From positions 1 through 22,776 of the forward strand of contig JBHIAC010000038.1 in the NCBI GenBank assembly GCA_046758365.1: a stretch of DNA of 22,776 bases, in the 5' to 3' direction. The notes under the pieces were generated by a model that saw only the letters and a program-made list of their open reading frames with translations, did no database searches and was not told the DNA's origin. The position numbers and the translations under genes are program-made. Positions 8,513 through 22,042 of the stretch are shown one piece after another. This DNA comes from a bacterium. Lineage in GTDB: Bacteria > Zhuqueibacterota > Zhuqueibacteria > Oceanimicrobiales > Oceanimicrobiaceae. Position 1 is the first letter of the stretch, and each line of letters begins with the position of its first letter.

Positions 8513-10411
8513 ATGGATATAAACAAAACAATCTTGCTTGTAGACGATGATCCAGATATGCTGGAAATTGGGGGTATAATTATCCATAAAGCCGGTTACA
8601 ACTACCTTGCCGCCGCTTCGGGGGAGGAAGGATTAGAAGTACTTATCCGAGAAAGGCCGGATTTGGTTATTTTGGATTACATGATGCCTAATATGAATGG
8701 CTATGAATTTTTCAAACAAATGACGAATAATCCAAAATACAAAATGGTGCGAGAAACTCCGGTAATTATGCTTACAGCAAAATCTGAGGAAGAGGTAGAA
8801 CGCAAAGAACTTTTTGAGATGGGACTAAGCGCGTTTTTGTTAAAGCCGTTTGGCAATCGGGAACTGATTAATGTAATTGATAATGTGTTCATTCTCCACC
8901 AGATGCGGATGAATAACAAAGAACTTCAGCAGAAAGTTAAACGGACAGAATATAAATACCAAGACTTAATCGAAAATGCTAGCGATTTGATATTCACTTT
9001 GGACCCGCAGGCAAGATTTGTTTTTATTAACAGACGTTTATCTTCAATAACTGGCTTAGACAGAAAAGGGTTGATGGGTAAGAATTTTTTTGACTTAATT
9101 GTACCTGAAGATCGCGAATACGCCAAATCGAATTTTCAAAAAACTATTAATGGACGTTCTAGCATTTTTGAAGTAAGAATTCACCACAACAACAAAAAGT
9201 GTATTTATCTTTCTACAAATATAAATCCCATATTTGAAAGGGGTCAGGTTGTTGGCTGTGTTGGCATAGCTCGAAACATTACCAAGAGAAAACAGCTTGA
9301 ACAAGAGATCATTGAACTAAAAAATTTCAATGAAAGTATTATTCAAAGCATAGGCTCTGGTTTAATTACGGTAGATCTGGACCGTAAAATCACTTCTTTT
9401 AACAATAGTGCAGAAGAAGTTTTGGGATATACCACCGAGGAAGTAGTAGGAAAATCGTTAGATGAAGTATTCCCCGCTGAAGAATGCAAAAGATTATTAC
9501 CAAATTTTGATAATCCTGATCAAGCTCTATTAAATCGTGAAATGCAGTTAACAGCGAAAAATGGTAAGCAGGTTTTTGTGGGCTTTACAGTGACACCGCG
9601 GATCGACAACCAAATTCAGCGAGTCGGAACGATCATTTCTTTTAGAGACATTACGCAAATCAAACAAATGCAGGCCGAGGTCCAAAGGATGGACCGCCTG
9701 GCTTCCATGGGCGTTTTAGCTTCTGGAATTGCCCATGAGATAAGAAATCCATTGGCAGGAATTAAAACGATTGCGCAAACATTGGAGGAAGAAATTGAAA
9801 CTGACAACCCCCGTCGAGAATATATTTCTCGAATTGTTCGGCAAGTGAACCGTATGGATGATCTGTTAAAAACATTTTTTTCCTACGCAAAACCTCGGCA
9901 GCCTCAACGGAAATTTCATCGACTCCAAGAAATTATACAAGAAGTTGTGGCCCTGCTTGAAAACCGCATACGAGGGCAATCAGTGAACTTTCAAGAAACG
10001 TATCATCCGGAACTTCCTTTATTATATATTGATTTCTATCAAATACAACAAGTGTTTGTAAATTTATTTCTAAATGCTCTGGACGCCATGCCTAAGGGAG
10101 GAGAATTAAAACTGGAAGCCTATCCCAAAATTACAACCCTTAAAAGAGTAGACCGTCGCGGACGCCCTTTTCCTGTCCAAAATAAAAGGGCACTATATGC
10201 AATAGTCAACATAACAGATACAGGCAAAGGCATAAAACCCAAAGACCTCCCTTCCATATTTAATCCTTTTTTTACTACAAAACCTCAAGGGTCTGGTTTA
10301 GGACTTTCGATTGTTTATAGAATTATAGCCGAACACGAGGGTGATATTCAAGTAGAAAGTGCATTAACTAAAGGGACATCTTTTCATCTGTTATTGCCTA
10401 CGGAGGAGTAA
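8513..10411 (+). CDS. Cytoplasmic hybrid histidine kinase REC-PAS-PAS-HisKA-HATPase (NtrB/AtoS-like)
   Basis: N-terminal REC (LVDDD, LDYMMP); two PAS domains; LASGIAHEIRNPL; NALDAM; FNPFFTTK..GSGLGL. Confidence 0.93.
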   Translation: MDINKTILLVDDDPDMLEIGGIIIHKAGYNYLAAASGEEGLEVLIRERPDLVILDYMMPNMNGYEFFKQMTNNPKYKMVRETPVIMLTAKSEEEVERKELFEMGLSAFLLKPFGNRELINVIDNVFILHQMRMNNKELQQKVKRTEYKYQDLIENASDLIFTLDPQARFVFINRRLSSITGLDRKGLMGKNFFDLIVPEDREYAKSNFQKTINGRSSIFEVRIHHNNKKCIYLSTNINPIFERGQVVGCVGIARNITKRKQLEQEIIELKNFNESIIQSIGSGLITVDLDRKITSFNNSAEEVLGYTTEEVVGKSLDEVFPAEECKRLLPNFDNPDQALLNREMQLTAKNGKQVFVGFTVTPRIDNQIQRVGTIISFRDITQIKQMQAEVQRMDRLASMGVLASGIAHEIRNPLAGIKTIAQTLEEEIETDNPRREYISRIVRQVNRMDDLLKTFFSYAKPRQPQRKFHRLQEIIQEVVALLENRIRGQSVNFQETYHPELPLLYIDFYQIQQVFVNLFLNALDAMPKGGELKLEAYPKITTLKRVDRRGRPFPVQNKRALYAIVNITDTGKGIKPKDLPSIFNPFFTTKPQGSGLGLSIVYRIIAEHEGDIQVESALTKGTSFHLLLPTEE

Positions 10412-10417
10412 TTAAAA

Positions 10418-11788
10418 ATGTCTAAAGCGAATGTTTTGATTGTTGAAGATAATGAGGACTTATGCCAGACATTGGCAGATGTTTTAGGAAAAGAGGGTAA
10501 TAAGGTACGCACGGCTTATTCAGGTGAACATGCCTTAAATATTTTACATAAAGATATCATTGATTTGGTATTATTAGATATCAAACTTCCAGATACAAAC
10601 GGCATAAAATTGCTGGAAGAAATCAAAGATCTGGACCCTGAAATCTTAGTTATTATGATTACAGCTTTGACAGATGCCCAACCTGCTGTAGATGCTATGA
10701 AAAGAGGCGCGTACGATTATTTAATGAAGCCTTTCGAATTGGATGAACTAAAAATAGTGTTAGCTAAGGCTCTGGAAACCCAGCACCTAAAGCGAGAGGT
10801 TTCTCGTTTGCTGAACCAGCAAAAGGAACAATTTCCCGATAATGAACTTTTTGGGAATTCTAAACCTATGAGAGAATTAAAAAAACTTATTAAAATCGTG
10901 GCAGGAACTCCCAAAACTTCTGTATTGATTCAAGGTGAGAGTGGTACTGGAAAAGAACTGGTGGCAAATGCTATACATAATTGGAGTGCCAGGGCTGAAA
11001 AACCACTTATTAAGATAAACTGCAGCGCTATTCCAGAAAACCTTTTGGAAAGCGAACTTTTTGGTTATGAAAAAGGAGCATTCACAGATGCCAAAAACAT
11101 GAAAAAGGGCATTTTTGAACTTGCTAATAACGGCACCATTATTCTGGACGAAATTTCCAGTATGCAGATGTCCATACAGCCAAAATTTCTTCGGGTCTTA
11201 GAAACTCAGTCATTTAGACGCATTGGCGGCACTTCTGATATTCAAATCGATGTCAGAATTATTGCAGCCACAAATAGAAACTTAGAAGATTGTGTTGAAC
11301 AACAAACTTTTAGAGAGGATTTATATTATCGTCTTAAAGTCATGGTACTAAATATCCCTACGCTACGAGAAAGAGCCGAAGACATCTTACCATTGGCCAT
11401 GCTTTTTATTGAAGCAAACAATAAGGAATTTAGTAAAAATGTAAAATGTATTGCTCCTGACGCTCAGGAACGAATGTTGAAATATAGCTGGCCAGGAAAC
11501 GTGCGAGAACTAAAAAATGTAATAGAAAGAGCTGTTATTTTATGTAATGGGGATGTACTGCAATCAGAACACTTACCTTTGGAACTGCAACAGGGTGTAT
11601 CAAAAATTTCAACTTCCACAGTATTTAGTTCAATTACTGGTGAAGGCTATTCATTAGAGGAAATGGAAAAACGACATATTATTAATATGTTAAAAAAATA
11701 TAATGGTAACAAATCTAAAACGGCAAGGATCCTTAGTATCTCTCGCTCTACGCTTCGAGAAAAAATGAAAAACTATGGTATAGCTTAA
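10418..11788 (+). CDS. sigma54-dependent transcriptional activator (REC-AAA+-Fis HTH, NtrC/AtoC family)
   Basis: REC; Walker A GESGTGKE; ESELFGYEKGAFTDA; Walker B LDEI; FREDLYYRL; WPGNVREL; HTH NKSKTARILSISRSTL. Confidence 0.95.
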   Translation: MSKANVLIVEDNEDLCQTLADVLGKEGNKVRTAYSGEHALNILHKDIIDLVLLDIKLPDTNGIKLLEEIKDLDPEILVIMITALTDAQPAVDAMKRGAYDYLMKPFELDELKIVLAKALETQHLKREVSRLLNQQKEQFPDNELFGNSKPMRELKKLIKIVAGTPKTSVLIQGESGTGKELVANAIHNWSARAEKPLIKINCSAIPENLLESELFGYEKGAFTDAKNMKKGIFELANNGTIILDEISSMQMSIQPKFLRVLETQSFRRIGGTSDIQIDVRIIAATNRNLEDCVEQQTFREDLYYRLKVMVLNIPTLRERAEDILPLAMLFIEANNKEFSKNVKCIAPDAQERMLKYSWPGNVRELKNVIERAVILCNGDVLQSEHLPLELQQGVSKISTSTVFSSITGEGYSLEEMEKRHIINMLKKYNGNKSKTARILSISRSTLREKMKNYGIA

Positions 11789-11994: not shown

Positions 11995-12010
11995 TGGCAT
12001 AAGAGTTGCA
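11995..12010 (+). promoter_or_regulatory. sigma54 (-24/-12) promoter
   Basis: TGGCAT-AAGAG-TTGCA with exact GG-N10-GC spacing, 46 bp before the ATG at 12057, which has an AAGGAG RBS. Confidence 0.85.
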
Positions 12011-12056
12011 GATTCGGAAGTAGATAATTTTTCTTTTAGATTTAAGGAGTCCTACC

Positions 12057-12725
12057 ATGATGGCTCAAAAAAAGATTCTTATTGTGGATGATGAAGAAGA
12101 TATAACCTGGGGAATTTCAAAAAGTTTAGCTAATGCTAATTACGCATTTGATGTGCATTGTGTAAATTCCGGTACTCAAGCTCTAGCTATGATTGATCAA
12201 AATAGATTTGATCTGGTTGTGTCTGATATTCGAATGCCGGGTCGTAATGGACTGCAATTATTATTAGATATTAGAAAGAAGTGTCCGAACACAAAAATTA
12301 TTATAATGACCGCTTATGGTTCTCAAGAAATAAAAGAGCGAGCAGAAAAGCAAGGCAGCTTTTTCTATATTGAAAAACCATTTGAAATTGGATATTTAAA
12401 ACAAATTATCCTCAACGCTTTAGAAGTTTACAACAACGGATTTAAAGGATACCTTAATAATGTAGGGATTCGAGAATTGGTAGAATTTAATTGCGCCAGT
12501 AAACGCACGTCTTCTTTATGGATTTCAAAAGATGAAGAACAGGGTACCATTTACTTTAGAAACGGAGATATTATTCATGCTGAATGTGGAAAATTAAGTG
12601 GTGAGAGAGCTCTGTTTAATATTTTAAATTGGAGCAAAGGTAACTTTAAAATCATCCCAAATGTTTTAACAATTAAAAGAACCATTCTGAGAGATTGGAG
12701 AACACTTTTGCATCATTGTCTTTAA
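12057..12725 (+). CDS. Response regulator with C-terminal DUF4388/PATAN-like domain
   Basis: REC (IVDDE, SDIRMPG, TAYG, KPF) followed by GFKGYL...ELVEF...GTIYFRNGDIIHAECGKLSGERALFNILNWSKGNF, a DUF4388/PATAN pattern. Confidence 0.85.
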   Translation: MMAQKKILIVDDEEDITWGISKSLANANYAFDVHCVNSGTQALAMIDQNRFDLVVSDIRMPGRNGLQLLLDIRKKCPNTKIIIMTAYGSQEIKERAEKQGSFFYIEKPFEIGYLKQIILNALEVYNNGFKGYLNNVGIRELVEFNCASKRTSSLWISKDEEQGTIYFRNGDIIHAECGKLSGERALFNILNWSKGNFKIIPNVLTIKRTILRDWRTLLHHCL

Positions 12726-12737
12726 AAAGGAATTAAG

Positions 12738-13556
12738 ATGGGAGAAGTCATAGCAATAGCCAGTCAAAAAGGTGGAGTTGGCAAAACCACCACCGCAGTT
12801 AATTTAAGTGCCAGTCTGGCTTCTTTAGGGCACAAAGTTTTACTCATTGATGTAGATCCACAGGGTAGTGTGGCCAACAGTTTTGGATACGGCAGATATG
12901 ACATAAAAGCTGGTGTTTTGGATATATTTACAAGAGATATCCCCCTAAGTGAAGCTATTCACCCAACAGGTTTGGCAAATTTTGATTTTGTACCAACAAA
13001 TGTCTGGTCAGATGAAGGGGGCAAAAAACGGTTCATTGACTTGGCCGCGGAAAACAAACTAAAAGATGTAATAGAGCCAATAAAAAATCAATACGATTTT
13101 ATTTTTATTGATTGTCCTCCATCATTTGGTTATTTGACCTACAACGCGCTTATTGCTTCAGATTCAATTATTATACCCATCCAGTGTGAATATTACGCAT
13201 TAAAAGCCCTTGGAAGGTTTTTAAAATTAACCCGTCTAATCAAAAGTGAAAAAAATCTTAATTTAAAATATCGAGGTTTTCTATTAACCATGGTAGACAT
13301 GAGAAACAATCTCAGCAAAATTGTGATAGAAAAAGTCCGCTATACACTGCAAGGATTAGTATTTAATACAATCATTCCCAGAAATATCCGATTGGCAGAA
13401 GTGCCATTCCATGGGAAACCTGTAATTATGTTTGACAAAGCCTGCAAAGGGGCGACTTGTTACATGAATTTGGCATTTGAAATTTTAGGTGAAAATGGAC
13501 AAACTGAACCAGAAGTGGAACAAAGAGAACATACCGAATTAGTAGAAGGAGTCTAA
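12738..13556 (+). CDS. parA: ParA/Soj-family ATPase (orphan, no adjacent parB)
   Basis: Deviant Walker A KGGVGKTT; DVDPQG; IDCPPS; IPIQCEYYAL; IPRNIRLAEVP. Confidence 0.9.
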   Translation: MGEVIAIASQKGGVGKTTTAVNLSASLASLGHKVLLIDVDPQGSVANSFGYGRYDIKAGVLDIFTRDIPLSEAIHPTGLANFDFVPTNVWSDEGGKKRFIDLAAENKLKDVIEPIKNQYDFIFIDCPPSFGYLTYNALIASDSIIIPIQCEYYALKALGRFLKLTRLIKSEKNLNLKYRGFLLTMVDMRNNLSKIVIEKVRYTLQGLVFNTIIPRNIRLAEVPFHGKPVIMFDKACKGATCYMNLAFEILGENGQTEPEVEQREHTELVEGV

Positions 13557-13558
13557 AA

Positions 13559-13951
13559 TTGCCAAAAATTCTTATCGTTGAAGATGAGTTCAACACTCGC
13601 CAAGGGTTATCTGAAATATTAACAGAAGAAGGTTTCGAAGTAGCGTTAGCAGAAGATGGAGCCAATGCTTTAGAGAAGATAGATATTGATACCGATTTGC
13701 TTCTTTCGGATTTGCGCCTTCCAGATATTACAGGATTAGACCTATTTAAAAAGCTTAAGCCATTGTATCCTGAATTGGTCACAATAATTATGACAGCCTA
13801 TAGCACGCCAGACCTTGGCGAGGAGGCGAAAGATGCAGGTGTGTTCAGTTGGCTAACAAAACCTTTAAATATAGAAATACTCCTTTCCAAACTTCAGGAA
13901 GCCCTAATTTTTCACAAAAGAGAGAAAAATAAGCCTATGAACTGTGTTTAA
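13559..13951 (+). CDS. Single-domain response regulator
   Basis: ILIVEDE, SDLRLPD, TAY, KP motifs; TTG start with an AGGAG RBS overlapping the end of parA. Confidence 0.88.
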   Translation: MPKILIVEDEFNTRQGLSEILTEEGFEVALAEDGANALEKIDIDTDLLLSDLRLPDITGLDLFKKLKPLYPELVTIIMTAYSTPDLGEEAKDAGVFSWLTKPLNIEILLSKLQEALIFHKREKNKPMNCV

Positions 13952-14019
13952 AATTTCAAAATGACATAACTAAATAAGAGACCGTGCATTAGACAAATTC
14001 TTTTTAAAAATTTATTCTA

Positions 14020-14739
14020 ATGTACATAGAAAGGAGGTCTGGTGGTACCTTGTTCTCTGTAATTTTGCTAAAAATATTGAAAGAGGGATATTTTATTCTT
14101 CTAACCATTGTAATGTTTATTTCCATGGTAAGCTTTTCCCATAACGTATTTAATTTTGATAAAGCTAAGCAGAAGGTGGCGCAGTTTGAACACACCTTGA
14201 AAGATTTAAAAGGCGTAATTAAAACAGATAGTGTTCGACAGCATGCTATATTTAAGATTTCCAGAATTATAGAGCAATACAATAATAAATTGAATCCTCA
14301 AAAAAAATATGAAATCGCCAATTTAATTAATAATATGAGCATCAAATACACCAATCTCGATGTAGATCTCATCTGCGCCACCATTACACATGAAAGTGCT
14401 TTAACTTGGCAACCTGATATTATATCCCCAGCAGGCGCCATTGGATTAATGCAAATCATGCCCTCCACAGGTCTTTTTCTTTCCAAGCACGAAAGTATAA
14501 GATGGACGAATGAAAAAGATATCCTCTTTAATCCAATTTATAATATAAGATTAGGCTGCCGTTATCTTTCCATGTTAATTGAGATGTATCATTTGGACGG
14601 AGGGTTGGCTGCTTATAACGGTGGAGAAAGACGTGCGGCTATGTGGCTTGCCAGTGGACGAGATAATGAAGTACTCTTGGAAGAGACTCGGGATTATATC
14701 CCAGCCGTTTTAAAATTGTATGATATATTTAAAAATTAA
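14020..14739 (+). CDS. Membrane-anchored lytic transglycosylase (SLT domain)
   Basis: N-terminal hydrophobic helix; catalytic HES; AGAIGLMQIMP; LAAYNGG; ETRDYI. The start may instead be TTG at 14050, after AGGAGG. Confidence 0.9.
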   Translation: MYIERRSGGTLFSVILLKILKEGYFILLTIVMFISMVSFSHNVFNFDKAKQKVAQFEHTLKDLKGVIKTDSVRQHAIFKISRIIEQYNNKLNPQKKYEIANLINNMSIKYTNLDVDLICATITHESALTWQPDIISPAGAIGLMQIMPSTGLFLSKHESIRWTNEKDILFNPIYNIRLGCRYLSMLIEMYHLDGGLAAYNGGERRAAMWLASGRDNEVLLEETRDYIPAVLKLYDIFKN

Positions 14740-14900
14740 ACAAAAATCAATTTTTAGGATGGTCAAAAGACTTAAGAAAACAGATATAAAATTGTAAAAC
14801 CATAAAATCACAGAGATAAACTCTGAGCTCTGAAAAAAAATCCCTTAAAAAATCCTCTGTGGTTAGATTTTGAAAATATAAAATATCCAAGAAGGAATCC

Positions 14901-16784
14901 ATGGAAAATGTACAAAAGGTACTTTCTGATGATGAATTTTACCAAGAACTGATTAGAAGATTTTTCCATCCAAATAGTTATTTTTACCATTGCATTAGCC
15001 ATCATCTTGATCGTATCATTCAAAGTAACGAAAATTCCAACAACGAAAATTATCTGCTCTTTGGCAGTTTTTTGGATAGTTTGGTGACTTCTGAAAATAA
15101 AGTTCAAGAACTCCTAAGACTCACAGCCATTGGGGGATTTCATAAATTTATTGAAAACTTAACAACCGGAGTAAGCTACCTGCGGGATTCCGATCTGACC
15201 CCCGAACAGATGAAAATAGAAATTGAATCTCTGGCGCAATCAATGGTTAAAATTGCTTTGGACGCTCTTCAGCACCAAGATACAAGGGAAAAGCTTAAAG
15301 AATACCTTGAATACACAAAATCAGATTTAGTCGATACCTCAACTAACGAAGTCAATGATTCAAATAGTAAATTAGACGATGAAGAGATAATCGAATTCAC
15401 AGAGCCGCCTTCCGAGGTACCCGGAAATGCGGAACCAGAATTAACTCAGCGAAGCCCCACCGACTTAACTGAGTTTAATAAAAACGAAGAAAAGGATTTT
15501 CTTCAATTTATGGTTAAGGGTAAGGATACCTCAATTGAAAATGGAATCGACTCTGATTTAGCCAAAGAAGGTGGCTCTGTTGATATTAACCTTAACTCCC
15601 AAAATTACACCATAGGCAGAGACCAAGTAGATGAGCAGCCAGAAAGTGTTATTCGAGTATTTCTAACTGAGATAGAATATCAACTTGAACAGTTGCAAAA
15701 TACATTTAAATTGCTAAGAAGCGATATTAGAAACAAAAACCACTGGACCGAGTTGAGAAATATTTTTGAAAATATCAAATCAACGGCTATGATTTATGGA
15801 CTGGAGGGATTTGAGCAAATTGCCGCTAAGGCCATAAAAATCATATCTGATTCAATTCATGAACCTGAAAACTCTCATCGAACTTCTCTAACACTCTTAA
15901 TGGAAACAAAGAATGTTCTTAGCCATTTGATTCAAGGTGATGTAGAAAATCTTGATGATAAAATCATTCTAAATCTTATTCAAAAATTAAAGAATCCCAA
16001 GGAATCGCTTTGCGAAGACATAAAAGAATCTCAACAGAGTTACTTAACAGAGCTAGAACAAAGTAATTTTTCAGTTGAAAATAAAGAAAAATCAATAAAA
16101 AAAAATCAATTAAATAATAATTCAGATTTCATATTACCGGGCGAAGACGACGAGGAAATTATAAGTTTGGTTAGAGAAATTTCAAAGAATAACCAAAAAG
16201 AGGATATCTCAGAAAGTAAAACCACTGATTTTGGCGATTCACAGCCGCTTATATCTATTAATAAAACAGAAAAACAAGAACTCAAAAATGAAAAATCTGA
16301 ACCATTGGCACCAAAAATTGTTGAACCTTCATTTGATGATCAACTAATCGCTTTTAAAGAGGAGGCGGATCTTTATTTCAGCATAATAGAAGAGGCCCTT
16401 AACACCTTGGAGACTCAAGCAGATAATAAGACTGCGTTGGATGATTTAGAGTTGGCTTCTTATTCTCTTTATGGACTTACCTTAAAGTTGAACCTCGAAC
16501 CTCTTGGCAAAATTCCTGCATCTATTGAAGGATTGATAAAAAATATAATCTCTAAAAAATCTTTACTTTCAGACAAAGAGCGCATATTAATAAAAAAGGC
16601 ATATCAACATTTTCGAAGTTTAACGCGAATTGAAGAAACAGAGAAGCGTCAATATAAAGAACTCCTTTCTTCACTACAGGCATTAAACTCAAGACATCAG
16701 ATGAATTCATATAATGATAATCCTATACCGCCGAGCTCAGATGAGTCAAAGAAAATAATAACAGAAACAGCAGAAAAGTGTTAA
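14901..16784 (+). CDS. Hypothetical protein with two histidine-less Hpt-like domains and acidic linkers
   Basis: VFLTEIEYQLEQL...LRNIFENIKSTAMIYGLEGFEQIA and AFKEEADLYFSIIEEAL...LELASYSLYGLTLKLNLEPL follow the CheA-P1/Hpt pattern F..E..E.L...IFRAAHTLKGSA...G...L, with E290 and Y521 at the His position. Confidence 0.7.
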   Translation: MENVQKVLSDDEFYQELIRRFFHPNSYFYHCISHHLDRIIQSNENSNNENYLLFGSFLDSLVTSENKVQELLRLTAIGGFHKFIENLTTGVSYLRDSDLTPEQMKIEIESLAQSMVKIALDALQHQDTREKLKEYLEYTKSDLVDTSTNEVNDSNSKLDDEEIIEFTEPPSEVPGNAEPELTQRSPTDLTEFNKNEEKDFLQFMVKGKDTSIENGIDSDLAKEGGSVDINLNSQNYTIGRDQVDEQPESVIRVFLTEIEYQLEQLQNTFKLLRSDIRNKNHWTELRNIFENIKSTAMIYGLEGFEQIAAKAIKIISDSIHEPENSHRTSLTLLMETKNVLSHLIQGDVENLDDKIILNLIQKLKNPKESLCEDIKESQQSYLTELEQSNFSVENKEKSIKKNQLNNNSDFILPGEDDEEIISLVREISKNNQKEDISESKTTDFGDSQPLISINKTEKQELKNEKSEPLAPKIVEPSFDDQLIAFKEEADLYFSIIEEALNTLETQADNKTALDDLELASYSLYGLTLKLNLEPLGKIPASIEGLIKNIISKKSLLSDKERILIKKAYQHFRSLTRIEETEKRQYKELLSSLQALNSRHQMNSYNDNPIPPSSDESKKIITETAEKC

Positions 16785-16909
16785 CGAATTCGTTAAGATG
16801 GCAAAAATACCTTATCTAATGTATTAAAAAAATAAAAATTGAGGTTAAATTTAACTAGAAAATCAATGACTGGGCGATTTACTTCAATAACTAAGAGGTT
16901 AGCAAAATA

Positions 16910-18619
16910 ATGGTTAAAAATAGTTCAGAAACTGATAAAGAACTTGAGTCTGTTTTAGGCATCCATAAAACTCGAATTCGTATAATTGGCACGGGTGGTG
17001 CAGGAAATAATACGATTACCCGCTTACTTGAAGTTGGTATAAAAGAAGTGGATGTCATTGCCATCAATACAGATGCCCAAGATCTTTTATTTGCGAAAGC
17101 CCATCAAAAGGTTCTCATAGGTAAAAACATAACGAATGGATTGGGGGCCGGAAGCGATCCTGAAAAGGGCGAGGATTCTGCCAAAGAGAGTTCAGAGGAT
17201 ATTGAAAAAGTTATTTCTGGCAGTGATATGATTTTTATTACCTGTGGATTGGGAGGCGGCACTGGTACAGGTTCAGCTCCCATCATTGCCGAGATCGCAA
17301 AAAAAATAGGGGCCTTGACTATTGCAATAGTAACTTTACCATTTTCTGATGAGGGTATTGTACGTTGGGAAAATGCTCGCAAAGGTTTAGACAAACTTCA
17401 AAAAAATGTAGATACTGTAATTGTTGTGCAAAACGATCGTCTTTTAGACATAGTTCCTGATATGCCGTTGAATGAGGCATTTAAAGTTGCAGATGAAATT
17501 CTTGTTAATGCAGTCAAGGGAATAACAGAATTGGTAACAGAAAAAGGATTAGTCAATTTGGATTTCGCCGATATACGCACCATCATGCAGAACGGTGGGC
17601 TTGCCATGATAGGCCTTGGTGAAAGCGATTCCGAAAACAATGCCGAAGATGCCGCAGCAAAGGCACTTAAAAATCCTTTATTAGATATAGATATCACCGG
17701 AGCAAAAAGTGCTTTAATAAATATCACGGGTGGACAGAATATGTCATTAAGTTCTGCTAAAACAATAATGAAAATTGTGGCTGAACAATTAGACCTCTCA
17801 GCAAAAATAATTTGGGGAGCAAGATTAGATGAAACCATGAACCATTCAATCCGGGTGATGCTCATTGTTACTTGCCTGAAAACTAATAGGCGATCACCTT
17901 CTGAAATTGATATGGCAATTAAGTCTATAGACCATGTTACTTCAAAGTCTAAAGAAATATCAAAAAAGTCTAGTCCTGATAAAGTTAATTCGGTAAAAAA
18001 AATAGACACAGAACAAACGAAAAAAGTACTAAAACCTGTTAAAAATAAGGGAACCAAAGTATTCTCTGAATTATTCATGGAGGAATCGTATGCTGATCTA
18101 ATCGTACTGGATGAGGCAATCAATGGATTAGCCATTGGAAATCGTGCGAGAAATGAAAAATATTTACGAGAAATTAATAATGCTTGCTCGTCCTTACAAA
18201 GCACTGCCGAGTTATTTTCCTTAAAAAACATTTCTGAATATGCGAAGATCATTGGTGAAGTAACAAAAAGAGCTCTAAAAGGTGAATTTGATTTATCAGA
18301 ATGTCTCATTAAAATATACCGACAAATACCATCTTCCGTGGAGAGCTTAATAGCCGAAGAAGAAAATTCTAATACAAAAGCCGAAGAAATCAAGAAAAAA
18401 TTGAACAGTATACTAGCATTGTTAAAAAATTCACAAGAAAAAAATAATTTAAATTCCCAAGATCAAAATAAAACCAATAAGGTGAATACGCTGAAGAATG
18501 ATTTTGAAATAAAAAAACAGCAGGTAGATAAATCCTCCGCTGAAGTAGGACCGAACCATGACGAACTCAATTTCTCTAATGTAGACGATGCTGTGAAGTA
18601 CATTAAGAAATTGTTTTAG
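16910..18619 (+). CDS. ftsZ: FtsZ homolog (archaeal FtsZ1-like core) fused to a C-terminal histidine-less Hpt-like domain
   Basis: GTGGAGNN, INTDAQ, GLGAG, tubulin signature GGGTGTG, T7 loop NLDFAD, IIWGA. Then a Lys/Ser-rich linker and LFMEES...LREINNACSSLQSTAELFSL (Hpt-like). Confidence 0.92.
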   Translation: MVKNSSETDKELESVLGIHKTRIRIIGTGGAGNNTITRLLEVGIKEVDVIAINTDAQDLLFAKAHQKVLIGKNITNGLGAGSDPEKGEDSAKESSEDIEKVISGSDMIFITCGLGGGTGTGSAPIIAEIAKKIGALTIAIVTLPFSDEGIVRWENARKGLDKLQKNVDTVIVVQNDRLLDIVPDMPLNEAFKVADEILVNAVKGITELVTEKGLVNLDFADIRTIMQNGGLAMIGLGESDSENNAEDAAAKALKNPLLDIDITGAKSALINITGGQNMSLSSAKTIMKIVAEQLDLSAKIIWGARLDETMNHSIRVMLIVTCLKTNRRSPSEIDMAIKSIDHVTSKSKEISKKSSPDKVNSVKKIDTEQTKKVLKPVKNKGTKVFSELFMEESYADLIVLDEAINGLAIGNRARNEKYLREINNACSSLQSTAELFSLKNISEYAKIIGEVTKRALKGEFDLSECLIKIYRQIPSSVESLIAEEENSNTKAEEIKKKLNSILALLKNSQEKNNLNSQDQNKTNKVNTLKNDFEIKKQQVDKSSAEVGPNHDELNFSNVDDAVKYIKKLF

Positions 18620-18639
18620 CTTTTTAGTGTACTTTTGAC

Positions 18640-19809
18640 ATGCAAACTCATAAAACAAATATAGACTTAAAAATATCTTCCGAAAATTCACTCCCTAATG
18701 TAATTTTAGATCGGTTTACCCAAGACTACTATTATCAAGAGGTCATGCAAGGTCTTAAAAAAATTGAGTCCTATTTATCTAAATTGCAGAAAGAACCTGG
18801 TAATCGAGAATATGTACAGCAGATTAGGAATATTGCAGAGTATGTAACAGATTTAGCAATGATCCATGGATACGAAGGGGTGGAGAATATAGCTGAAAAG
18901 ATAAGGTCTAGTTCTGATCTTATTTTGTGCAAAAGTGAGGAGTTGGAAAAACCTTTTCTTTCAAAAATAGAATTTGCCGTAAAAGCCATTCGTCAGGTGA
19001 TGGAATTGGAAGAAGATATTGACTATCAATTGATATTTGATGAGATTGACGAGAAAATAGCATTAAAACAAAAGGAAGTAAGATCTTGTGCCTCAAGACT
19101 TTCTAACTACTTTGAACAATCCAAGCAAAAAAATAAGCACCTATTTTTCGACATTCGAGAAATAAATACACTTATGAATTTAGTAGAAGAACCTCCAAGG
19201 ATCAAGTCAGGGAATAAGCCTAATAACTTAAATGATACCAAATTTATTAATAATCTCAAGAAAAATACGAAAAATTCAGCTATTAATTTTACACGACCTA
19301 TAGCATCGGCCGAAATTAGTAAAAATAACTTAACAGCCGTGGCAAAAGAACAATTATCTGTTATTGAACAGGCTGTATTAGAACTTCAGGTGATTCCTTA
19401 TGCGACCCATGCAATCCAAGATATTTACACAGCTTGTAAGACTTTACAAGAAACGGCACTGCGATTAAATGATAAAAATTTAACCTTAATTTTGAATCCC
19501 ATACAAAAACTTACTCAAGATAAATTAAATAAGACGAAGCCTGTTTCTGACTCCATTTTGGAAATATTTAATCAAACAACTAAACTCATACACAATCATA
19601 TAGATTATAATCAAGATGACATAAAGGAGATACAAAATCTTGGTCAAAAAATTGAAAAAATATTAAAAGTTGAATCAGTATCTTTAAAAGGCAAGGAAAT
19701 GGACACCGGACATTTTGCAAAAGATATGGAGGATGGATACGAAAAGAAAGGTGTTCACCGCAGCAAAATTGGTTCGTTTTTGAGAGGTTTGATTAAGAAT
19801 AAGAAATAA
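18640..19809 (+). CDS. Hypothetical protein with two histidine-less Hpt-like domains and a basic amphipathic C-terminus
   Basis: YYYQEVMQGLKKIE...IRNIAEYVTDLAMIHGYEGVENIA and AKEQLSVIEQAVLEL...IYTACKTLQETA; ends SKIGSFLRGLIKNKK. Confidence 0.7.
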   Translation: MQTHKTNIDLKISSENSLPNVILDRFTQDYYYQEVMQGLKKIESYLSKLQKEPGNREYVQQIRNIAEYVTDLAMIHGYEGVENIAEKIRSSSDLILCKSEELEKPFLSKIEFAVKAIRQVMELEEDIDYQLIFDEIDEKIALKQKEVRSCASRLSNYFEQSKQKNKHLFFDIREINTLMNLVEEPPRIKSGNKPNNLNDTKFINNLKKNTKNSAINFTRPIASAEISKNNLTAVAKEQLSVIEQAVLELQVIPYATHAIQDIYTACKTLQETALRLNDKNLTLILNPIQKLTQDKLNKTKPVSDSILEIFNQTTKLIHNHIDYNQDDIKEIQNLGQKIEKILKVESVSLKGKEMDTGHFAKDMEDGYEKKGVHRSKIGSFLRGLIKNKK

Positions 19810-19835
19810 ATAAATATTTAACAATTAAATTCAAC

Positions 19836-19870
19836 AAAAACCAGCCCCAGGTATTTGGGGCTGGTTTTTT
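19836..19870 (+). terminator. Intrinsic terminator closing the ftsZ-containing cluster
   Basis: AAAAA-CCAGCCCCA...TGGGGCTGG-TTTTTT. Confidence 0.9.
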
Positions 19871-19887
19871 ATTTTTCGAAAAAAAAG

Positions 19888-19916
19888 TTGCTTATTTAAA
19901 TGAATTTTATTACTAT
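19888..19916 (+). promoter_or_regulatory. sigma70-type promoter of guaB
   Basis: TTGCTT, 17 bp, TACTAT. Confidence 0.55.
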
Positions 19917-19931
19917 TAGTTCAAAATTTAA

Positions 19932-21414
<1,483 letters not shown>

Positions 21415-21416
<2 letters not shown>

Positions 21417-21490
21417 AAATAAGAAACCGGGCTTGCTCGTCTTACCGGGATTAGGGGGAGTTACCGGTTTAGACTTGCTTACCCGGTTTC
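21415..21490 (-). terminator. Long interrupted hairpin plus U-tract after rpsT, between convergent guaB and rpsT
   Basis: Minus strand GAAACCGGGT-AA-GC-AA-GTCT-AA-ACCGG-loop-CCGGT-A-AGAC-GA-GC-AA-GCCCGGTTTC followed by TTATTTTT. Confidence 0.6.
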
Positions 21491-21509
21491 AAAATTCATC
21501 CGCTCTCTC

Positions 21510-21761
21510 TTATATCGCATTAACAAACTTGGTTAATCTTGATTTCTGGTTGGCTGCCTTATTCCGATGGATAATACCTTTGGCTACCATTTTATCTAAT
21601 ATTGATACCGTCTGGGTTAAATGCTTCATCGCCGATTCTTTATCATGAGAGGCAAGAACATTTTTAATTGCTGTTTTCATAGCAGATTTATAATGTTTGT
21701 TGCGCATCCTTTCTTTTTCACTCTTTCGGACGCGCCGCATGGTTGATTTATTATTTGCCAT
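21510..21761 (-). CDS. rpsT: 30S ribosomal protein S20
   Basis: MAN.KS..R...N...KS..KT.IK; KGIIHRNKAANQKSRL. Confidence 0.96.
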   Translation of the reverse strand: MANNKSTMRRVRKSEKERMRNKHYKSAMKTAIKNVLASHDKESAMKHLTQTVSILDKMVAKGIIHRNKAANQKSRLTKFVNAI

Positions 21762-21808
21762 ATTGTTTTATGTTTCTCCTTACTTATTTCCCTCCTTTAA
21801 ATTTTTCA

Positions 21809-21837
21809 AATATACAAAAATATATTACTTTTGTCAA
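21809..21837 (-). promoter_or_regulatory. sigma70-type promoter of rpsT
   Basis: Minus strand TTGACA (21837-21832), 17 bp, TATATT (21814-21809). Confidence 0.7.
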
Positions 21838-21911
21838 TAGAAAAAATTGCAACAAATTAGTATTGTATTTATGAATGGTCAAGATGGGCTTGATTTTAAT
21901 AAAACTTTTTC

Positions 21912-21940
21912 TTGACTTTTAGTCTCTTTTATCTTATTAT
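21912..21940 (+). promoter_or_regulatory. sigma70-type promoter of the STAS gene
   Basis: TTGACT, 17 bp, TATTAT. Confidence 0.65.
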
Positions 21941-22042
21941 AAAATATAACCAATTATAAGTTTGTAACTCGTTTTACTTAGTAAGCTTTGCTTTCAAGAG
22001 TATAAATTTTTAACAAAATCTTAGCCCAACTAAGGAGGGAAC

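Follow-up and report, generated by a model that had tools for sequence, protein, structure and literature searches.

As a rule, FtsZ is assumed to descend vertically, its bacterial and archaeal forms being cleanly split. In bacteria, canonical FtsZ uses its C-terminal peptide for FtsA. Other, extra FtsZ-family proteins of bacteria are FtsZm (magnetotactic bacteria), the FtsZl families (Makarova and Koonin) and TubZ; these are either truncated proteins of bacterial type or highly divergent ones of the Tubulin_2 type. According to two papers, archaeal FtsZ1, known from M. jannaschii (PDB 1FSZ/1W58) and Haloferax, has a short C-terminal tail with a 'GID'-type SepF-binding motif (PMC8178401) and its gene stands in a translation-gene context (PMC9871819, PMC8178401). 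One of them describes a clear separation of bacterial and archaeal FtsZ (PMC8178401), and the other states that notorious ftsZ transfers between the two domains were not detected (PMC9871819). Here, we analyse a 22,776-nt stretch of DNA, called the window, which is a whole contig (G000:C38) from an uncultured bacterium of the phylum KSB1 (Zhuqueibacterota). An open reading frame (ORF) at positions 16910-18619 of the + strand encodes a 569-residue FtsZ, hereafter the long FtsZ, whose GTPase core is of the archaeal FtsZ1 type.

The long FtsZ resembles archaeal FtsZ1 in alignment score, in an N-terminal D-x-E-L helix, in motifs and diagnostic residues and in the side of the tree on which it falls. 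Unlike archaeal FtsZ1, it belongs to a diderm-type bacterium that also encodes a canonical FtsZ, it reaches 569 residues owing to a 244-residue tail with a P1/Hpt-like domain, and no short archaeal tail is evident. Its gene is surrounded by two-component genes, a sigma-54 activator, a ParA-like ATPase and a lytic transglycosylase (SLT) instead of translation genes. With canonical bacterial FtsZ it shares the fold family and the catalytic motifs, and by eye its end peptide resembles that of the host FtsZ, whereas it lies outside the bacterial clade (support 100/100), is not encoded beside ftsA and carries an extra folded tail domain. That domain is like CheA P1/Hpt (1i5n, 1tqg, 2lp4, 3kyi; PF01627) in its profile match and predicted helical bundle, but it is devoid of the phospho-histidine and joined to a cytoskeletal GTPase instead of a kinase. 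With FtsZm, FtsZl and TubZ, the likeness is that of a second tubulin-superfamily GTPase apart from, or added to, the main division ring; the long FtsZ differs by a well-conserved FtsZ1-type core above the TIGR00065 cut-off and by its fusion to a signalling domain. The literature found on FtsZ transfer, KSB1 FtsZ, FtsZ-Hpt fusions and second FtsZ proteins (supplements lay outside the search) describes the long FtsZ nowhere, and the word 'FtsZ' is absent from the text of the Zhuqueibacterota paper, its supplement likewise lying outside the search. What is new here is that an FtsZ1-type paralogue occurs in Bacteria, set among signalling genes and built from domains in a new arrangement. The KSB1 long FtsZ is an exception to the clean split or a surviving deep lineage, and either reading bears on the evolution of the division machinery.

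The GTPase core of the long FtsZ is of the archaeal FtsZ1 type

As delineated from the ORF, Pfam and TIGR00065, the long FtsZ consists of an FtsZ1-type core, a linker, a P1/Hpt-like domain without the histidine, a second linker and a C-terminal peptide. The core (aa 1-325; 16910-17884, + strand) contains Pfam domains Tubulin (aa 23-182, 159 bits, cut-off 33) and FtsZ_C (aa 230-323, 108 bits, cut-off 27), both above their curated cut-offs, and the TIGR00065 ftsZ model gives 417 bits for a cut-off of 295. A sequence-only reading of the same DNA had placed the feature at 16910-17880. Its start was right, but position 17880 ends the GTPase core only, and the ORF continues to 18619. The remaining 244 residues with the tail domain were overlooked, as were the second, canonical FtsZ of the genome and the P1-like domains in both neighbouring proteins.

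The motif strings quoted in that reading all occur in the translation: ETDKELESVL (aa 7-16), GGAGNNTITRL (29-39), ITCGLGGGTGTGSAP (110-124), VTLPFSDEG (141-149), AFKVADEILVNAVKGITEL (190-208), NGGLAMIGLGESDSE (228-242), PLLDIDITGA (256-265) and IIWGA (300-304). The GTP-binding and T7 catalytic residues are also intact, as it had stated: the G-box GGGTGTG lies in GLGGGTGTGSAP (aa 113-124) and the T7 synergy loop N-x-D-x-x-D in VNLDFAD (aa 215-221), and both are conserved in the consensus of 20 long-form rows. The motifs on which GTP binding and hydrolysis depend are intact.

In a phmmer search of the PDB, the window core scored 392 bits with M. jannaschii 'FtsZ homolog 1' (1w58/1fsz), compared to 298 bits with the best bacterial chain (4dxd). 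Haloferax sp. Q22 served as an anchor. Against the same M. jannaschii chain, its 379-aa FtsZ (FtsZ1) scored 391 bits and its 403-aa FtsZ (FtsZ2) 319 bits. The window core, at 392 versus 391 bits, is therefore no less FtsZ1-like than a bona fide FtsZ1 of haloarchaea. Paralogues gathered from 15 named archaeal genomes formed the comparison set scored against the window core. Rows assigned later by tree to the FtsZ1 type gave mostly 340-426 bits, with a few Thermoplasmata rows at 312-326 bits, the top scores being those of Asbonarchaeaceae (426 bits) and Woesearchaeota (423 bits). FtsZ2-type rows gave 233-321 bits and bacterial FtsZ rows 257-306 bits. Local alignments started at query aa 2-9 for most FtsZ1 rows, which therefore include the N-terminal helix, and at aa 14-23 for most FtsZ2 and bacterial rows, with few exceptions. 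The D-x-E-L signature of this helix is common to the window protein and FtsZ1 and is absent from the FtsZ2 and bacterial consensus.

Diagnostic columns were defined in an 88-row alignment as those in which both compared groups were at least 80% conserved with a differing state. The long forms carried the FtsZ1 state at 8 of the 9 columns that distinguish FtsZ1 from FtsZ2 and at 5 of the 7 that distinguish FtsZ1 from bacteria. In the group consensus of the same 88 rows, the window protein and FtsZ1 share TCGLGGGTGTGSAP (aGmGGGTGTGAAP in bacteria), AmIGlGES (ALMGiG), IIWGA (IIFGa) and the NT of the T1 loop (NA). GGAGNNTITRL had been taken as a mark of FtsZ1; this holds for NT in the T1 loop but not for Ala at the third Gly, which is not diagnostic because the FtsZ1 consensus in the sampled set is GcGGgG.NT. 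Overall, scores, group-consensus motifs, diagnostic columns and the trees described below bear out that the core resembles archaeal FtsZ1 rather than bacterial FtsZ.

Other arrangements of FtsZ1-type and long-form-type cores were observed among the relatives. The related loci are a sample, the best 80 of 603 stretches, and not a census. Two Thermoplasmata-type genomes (L071, L072) carry two adjacent tandem FtsZ1-type genes (e.g. 4678-5799 and 5956-7071 in L072), the copies of which form separate sister pairs across both genomes, so that the duplication is old. Four proteins (P0121, P0122, P0128, P0256) contain two complete tandem FtsZ cores per polypeptide, P0121 (826 aa) being from Altiarchaeum hamiconexum according to the sources. 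In P0137 (863 aa), an FtsZ1-type core stands behind a D-aminoacyl-tRNA deacylase domain (PF04414, E 6e-66) and groups with euryarchaeal FtsZ1 in the quick tree. Long-form-type cores are interrupted by about 130 residues at query position ~125 in P0134 and by about 340 residues at ~100 in P0136; these interruptions could be an intein or another insertion.

Position of the long forms in the FtsZ tree

A FastTree of the 150 best representatives from a library of 1.84 billion proteins was split, with a support of 100, into sides of 59 and 86 rows. The 59-row side holds the window family together with named Methanobrevibacter, Huberarchaeum, Thermoplasmatota, Loki-, Heimdall- and Freyarchaeota and Altiarchaeum, and the canonical FtsZ of the host is found on the 86-row side. 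Maximum-likelihood trees were calculated with IQ-TREE, a quick one on 124 rows including CetZ and a careful one on 88 rows under LG+C20+F+G4 by posterior mean site frequency (PMSF). Near-duplicate Streptomyces, Paenibacillus, sphingomonad and Methanoregula rows were dropped beforehand; 10 CetZ rows, the long-branched L140, P0156, L101, P0139 and P0151 and further near-duplicates were additionally kept out of the careful tree.

The quick and careful trees recovered the same main groups. The careful tree has a bacterial FtsZ clade supported at 100/100 (21 rows of 11 named phyla and also the host copy), in which the canonical FtsZ of the host is sister to a Gemmatimonadales FtsZ. FtsZ2 also forms a clade (100/100), and the long forms make up one clade (100/99) outside both. 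The long forms thus lie apart from the ordinary FtsZ of the host phylum, which falls within the bacterial clade. They group, at 97/91, with FtsZ1 of DPANN archaea (Woese-, Nano-, Aenigm- and Asbonarchaeaceae and three further representatives). In both trees, the FtsZ1 groups appear as an unresolved, short-branched grade. With CetZ as the outgroup in the quick tree, the root fell inside this grade. This rooting was set aside because, according to PMC9871819, archaeal FtsZ is the presumed ancestor of CetZ.

Approximately unbiased (AU) tests were performed on a 55-row subset. Constrained searches were made under LG+F+G4 and the fixed topologies were evaluated under LG+C20+F+G4; trees found in this way may be suboptimal under C20. 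Forcing the long forms together with the canonical FtsZ of the host cost 173 log-likelihood units (lnL) under LG+F+G4 (AU p 4e-49) and 142 under LG+C20+F+G4 (AU p 9e-4). An origin from the host's own FtsZ is thereby ruled out, and duplication within the phylum is excluded. When the long forms are placed with Bacteria against all Archaea, hereafter the basal topology, the branch of the family attaches at 0.07 substitutions/site from the archaeal node, compared to 1.38 from the bacterial crown. The long forms are archaeal-type whichever topology is taken.

Two FtsZ1-like proteins without a P1-like domain, P0142 (511 aa) and P0145 (518 aa), also group with DPANN FtsZ1 in the careful tree. Their long, disordered tails end in an amphipathic basic peptide (e.g. 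..KKGWFSFLGRKK), which looks like a putative built-in membrane-targeting helix.

A second FtsZ in the genome and its spread through the phylum

The host genome bin comprises 3.7 Mb and is 95% complete, with an estimated contamination of 8.2%. A TIGR00065 profile search of this genome gave two matches, the long FtsZ and a canonical FtsZ of 394 aa encoded on another contig (G000:C79), where it immediately follows an ftsA-like ORF. This copy ends in DYDIPTYLRRLVD, a canonical bacterial C-terminal peptide. The long FtsZ is therefore an extra paralogue, the second FtsZ of the genome.

The 120 best homologous-protein matches were 66-100% identical and mostly 540-920 aa long. All but two of them, which are short or partial, have the tail domain (118/120), and those with source names are labelled KSB1, Calditrichaeota, Bacteroidetes or simply 'bacterium'. 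When 167 genomes of the phylum were searched with the core, the result was bimodal, canonical FtsZ appearing at E values of about 1e-80 to 1e-91 and the long form far below. Long FtsZ was found in 97 of these genomes (E <= 2e-101, 46-84% identity, frames mostly 500-900 aa), or in 96 of 165 when two unpublished genomes (G162, G158) are excluded. The window core is 46-50% identical to the canonical FtsZ of the phylum. Every copy of the extra FtsZ in the phylum is a long form, and the family is old within the phylum. Overall, KSB1 keeps an extra FtsZ paralogue alongside its normal ftsA-ftsZ pair.

The assembly of the locus was also considered. Composition is even across it, and the long FtsZ is located mid-contig between bacterial genes. 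Logan contigs of three runs cover positions 12000-22000 without joints, and one of them, from run X1 (which may be the source sample), extends over 12686-21474 by itself. Both gene junctions are bridged by contigs of other samples (16532-17267, 17265-18796 and 18351-20334). Together with the conserved gene order in other genomes, these contigs show that the assembly is not chimeric, an eventuality the sequence-only reading had raised.

The tail contains a CheA-P1/Hpt-like domain without the phospho-histidine

The tail begins with a Lys/Ser-rich linker (aa 326-382; 17885-18055, + strand), delimited from the translation and a C-terminal alignment and poorly alignable across the long-FtsZ family. 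It is followed by a 123-residue domain (aa 383-505; 18056-18424, + strand). In a Pfam scan, no Hpt match at E <= 0.01 was obtained with the window FtsZ, and 11 of 20 single tails matched Hpt at E <= 0.05. A profile of 21 family members searched against the PDB retrieved CheA P1 of T. maritima (1tqg, E 5.5e-12) and also 2ld6, 8c5v and 1i5n. The AlphaFold2 model of the domain is a helical bundle with a mean predicted local distance difference test value (pLDDT) of 94.6. Foldseek top matches to this model are CheA P1 structures, namely 1i5n from Salmonella (template modelling score 0.82), then 2lp4 and 3kyi. As modelled, the tail domain has a CheA-P1/Hpt-like fold.

In the HMMER alignment, the phospho-histidine of CheA (ALHTLKG) falls one residue past an often-conserved Cys. 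The window protein reads A-C-S-S-L-Q in this region, with Ser at the phospho-histidine column and Cys immediately before it. His was found at this column in none of 143 FtsZ-borne domains and in none of 26 domains of flanking proteins. The FtsZ-borne domains have Ser (68), Thr (21), Ala (10) and also Asn, Ile, Lys and others at this position, and Cys stands just ahead of it in 71 of the 143. A His is present somewhere in the ten surrounding match columns (39-48) in 19 of the 169 domains. From these columns, we infer that the P1-like bundle cannot be phosphorylated on the usual histidine.

Searches with the tail profile (hmmsearch) also revealed two His-less P1-like domains in each of the adjacent proteins, which have no Pfam or NCBIfam match. 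The upstream neighbour (14901-16784, + strand, 627 aa) carries them at aa 253-353 and 484-596, and the downstream neighbour (18640-19809, + strand, 389 aa) at aa 36-126 and 236-342. Among 20 loci from other genomes of the phylum, P1-like proteins lie upstream of long FtsZ in 10 and downstream in 6, two of these 16 matches being weak.

The long FtsZ ends in the peptide ..NVDDAVKYIKKLF (..DDAVKYIKKLF; 18563-18616, + strand). Judged by eye, it resembles the C-terminal peptide of the host's canonical FtsZ, and similar ends are seen in 10 of 21 long forms. We take this resemblance as a lead. In long forms of other classes (L037-L041, L048, L049 and others), the otherwise variable linker often contains a short conserved motif of roughly the form [SN]-I-F-D-I-K-E-S-I, which the window protein does not evidently have.

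The long FtsZ is linked to a signalling gene cluster

Between 5706 and 19809, every gene is encoded on the + strand. Their order is REC-GGDEF (REC, receiver domain), HAMP-PAS kinase, REC-PAS hybrid kinase, sigma-54 activator, REC-DUF4388, ParA/MinD-like ATPase, REC, SLT, a protein with two P1-like domains, the long FtsZ and a second protein with two P1-like domains. By Pfam, the sensor block (5706-10411) is composed of REC-GGDEF (5706-6656), a HAMP-PAS histidine kinase (6667-8148), a HisKA-like ORF (8213-8464) and a REC-PAS-PAS hybrid kinase (8513-10411). Downstream come an NtrC/AtoC-type sigma-54 activator with REC, AAA+ and helix-turn-helix domains (10418-11788; Pfam Sigma54_activat, E 9.5e-69), the receiver-DUF4388 protein (12057-12725; Pfam), a ParA/MinD-type P-loop ATPase (12738-13556; Pfam AAA_31 and CbiA, NCBIfam ParA and MinD models below cut-off), a single-domain response-regulator receiver (13559-13951; Pfam Response_reg) and a lytic transglycosylase (14020-14739; Pfam SLT, E 2.9e-19). 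Ahead of the receiver-DUF4388 gene, a sigma-54 -24/-12-like site, TGGCATAAGAGTTGCA (11995-12010, + strand), has one mismatch to the consensus and ends 47 nt before the ATG at 12057.

The 20 loci mentioned above were compared over 8 kb on each side of long FtsZ. An orthologue of the sigma-54 activator (at least 523 bits) is present upstream on the same strand in 13 of them. An orthologue of the REC-DUF4388 receiver (at least 100 bits) occurs in 14, and one of the ParA-like ATPase in 9; an SLT orthologue stands beside long FtsZ in 9. Orthologues of the sensor block are found in the same order in loci of distant classes. There, the cluster is compact, with a GGDEF response regulator, kinase, hybrid kinase, activator and single receiver, and long FtsZ about 400 bp downstream. 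The single receiver directly upstream of long FtsZ in these compact clusters is an orthologue of the REC-DUF4388 receiver. The acidic pocket and the phospho-acceptor Asp of this receiver are invariant in 16 of 16 sequences. Counting the window, 11 of 16 loci have a similar sigma-54 site 50-73 nt ahead of the receiver orthologue; the weight of this candidate site comes from its position and its recurrence in other loci only. Overall, the comparison reveals a conserved link of long FtsZ to sensor, activator and receiver genes.

Origin and possible role of the long FtsZ

We favour one ancient transfer of an FtsZ1-type gene from an archaeon to KSB1, with a probability of roughly 0.6. This explanation is preferred because of the parsimony of the distribution, not because of the AU tests. 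An early, single acquisition from an FtsZ1-carrying archaeon would have occurred, the DPANN-type FtsZ1 being the sister group in the best tree; the archaeal tail would have been lost after the transfer and the CheA-P1/Hpt-like bundle gained. Several results weigh against such a transfer. The basal topology has an AU p of 0.33 under LG+F+G4 and is the best of five by 0.5-0.8 lnL under LG+C20+F+G4 (p 0.53), the PMSF topology having a p of 0.50. Grouping of the long forms with FtsZ2 gives p values of 0.375 and 0.40. The sister group depends on the model, being DPANN FtsZ1 with PMSF and Methanobrevibacter with LG+F+G4. Nesting inside archaeal FtsZ1 is therefore statistically not secured. SepF (PF04472) was not found in the 95%-complete genome, while control genomes matched, and the window protein shows no evident tail motif of archaeal type. 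Finally, families f4, f7, f8 and f9 of the phylum have the canonical copy only. Such a lack of the long form in entire families calls for losses or a patchy spread.

The sequence-only reading had left the choice between inter-domain transfer and a deep-branching lineage. This choice stands in its two-way form, as the AU tests do not separate the two (p 0.33-0.53). The long FtsZ would in the second case be a relic paralogue that split off on the bacterial-archaeal stem near the archaeal node, was inherited vertically, was kept only in KSB1 and was lost elsewhere; its likeness to FtsZ1 would reflect that both evolve slowly and stay near the ancestral sequence. We regard this as the less likely course, though one to be taken seriously. 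The marginal lead of the basal topology under LG+C20+F+G4, the short-branched grade formed by the FtsZ1 groups and the finding of neither an archaeal partner nor an archaeal context beside long FtsZ speak in its favour. However, retention in one phylum would require many independent losses. The source-named proteins among the 118 tail-bearing best matches are KSB1, Calditrichaeota, Bacteroidetes or 'bacterium', and the canonical FtsZ sampled from 11 other bacterial phyla all belong to the bacterial clade. The join much closer to the archaeal node (0.07) than to the bacterial crown (1.38), and the placement of the family within archaeal diversity in the best PMSF tree (97/91), argue in the same direction. 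An artefact, either an archaeal fragment mis-assembled or mis-binned or a duplicate of the host FtsZ converged on archaeal-like residues, could be suspected from the contamination estimate of 8.2%. It is made extremely improbable by the mid-contig position among bacterial genes, the even composition, the same arrangement in other genomes of the phylum, the contigs from other samples that cross both junctions without joints and, for the host duplicate, the rejection by the AU test.

The role of the long FtsZ can be viewed in two ways. It might be a constitutive second division protein that works with canonical FtsZ, as FtsZ1 does with FtsZ2 in archaea, the signalling neighbours being incidental. 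Its intact catalytic motifs and its end peptide similar to that of the host FtsZ fit such a role, and dual FtsZ rings are known in Haloferax (PMC8178401). Yet sensor, activator and receiver genes adjoin long FtsZ even in distant classes with the compact cluster, a sigma-54-like site precedes the receiver in 11 of 16 loci, and signalling-type P1 domains are found in the tail as well as in both neighbours. Moreover, 70 of the 167 phylum genomes lack the long form, which is therefore not essential for division there. This makes a constitutive division role improbable.

The combination of an FtsZ core, a signalling-type tail and a signalling cluster suggests, alternatively, a filament tied to cell signalling. 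The adjacent kinases would phosphorylate the NtrC-type activator, which, once activated, would fire a sigma-54 promoter ahead of the row of genes from receiver-DUF4388 through the downstream protein with two P1-like domains. The FtsZ core would polymerise with GTP. The dead P1 domains may offer docking sites to receiver domains, in the way that CheA P1 docks CheY, or to each other, so that filament assembly or position would follow the signalling state. The ParA-like ATPase and the transglycosylase would position the filament and remodel the wall, and the end peptide might link the filament with FtsA or the membrane. Taken as a whole, this course from kinases through sigma-54 to FtsZ assembly or position is tentative, with chances somewhat below even. 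Its details are weakened by three observations: only 1 of the 20 tails passed the Hpt cut-off, matches to the sigma-54 pattern are not enriched across the window (7 found for 8.7 expected), and the pattern is absent ahead of the receiver in 5 of 16 loci. A complex prediction for the REC-DUF4388 receiver with a P1-like domain gave a score of 0.00 and no verdict, and was counted neither way.

In its strictest version, a tubulin-family filament would be a direct two-component output, with a sigma-54-induced, archaeal-derived FtsZ that would be assembled, positioned or dissolved by phosphorylation-dependent docking of receivers on its dead P1 domain and on the flanking P1-repeat proteins. We consider this version unlikely. 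If it were true, the long FtsZ would form, with the ParA/MinD-like ATPase and the transglycosylase, a second, signal-triggered machine for septation or cell remodelling, and ftsZ itself would have its first clear transfer between domains. An FtsZ fused to a His-less CheA-P1 domain within a sigma-54/two-component cluster would offer a concrete example of signal transduction coupled to a polymer of the cytoskeleton.

Other features of the window

The sequence-only reading had described the neighbourhood as clearly bacterial, and Pfam agrees: besides the sigma-54 activator and the SLT protein, the window contains a TonB-dependent receptor (1043-3211) and rpsT (21510-21761, - strand). Within the sensor block, the HisKA-like ORF located between the two kinase genes encodes 83 aa and its HisKA match is weak (E 1e-3, below cut-off). 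A stretch of about 1 kb (3212-4225) devoid of any ORF of at least 80 aa has the lowest G+C content of the window (0.31) and is located between the TonB-dependent receptor and the gene for a glycine-cleavage P-protein subunit.

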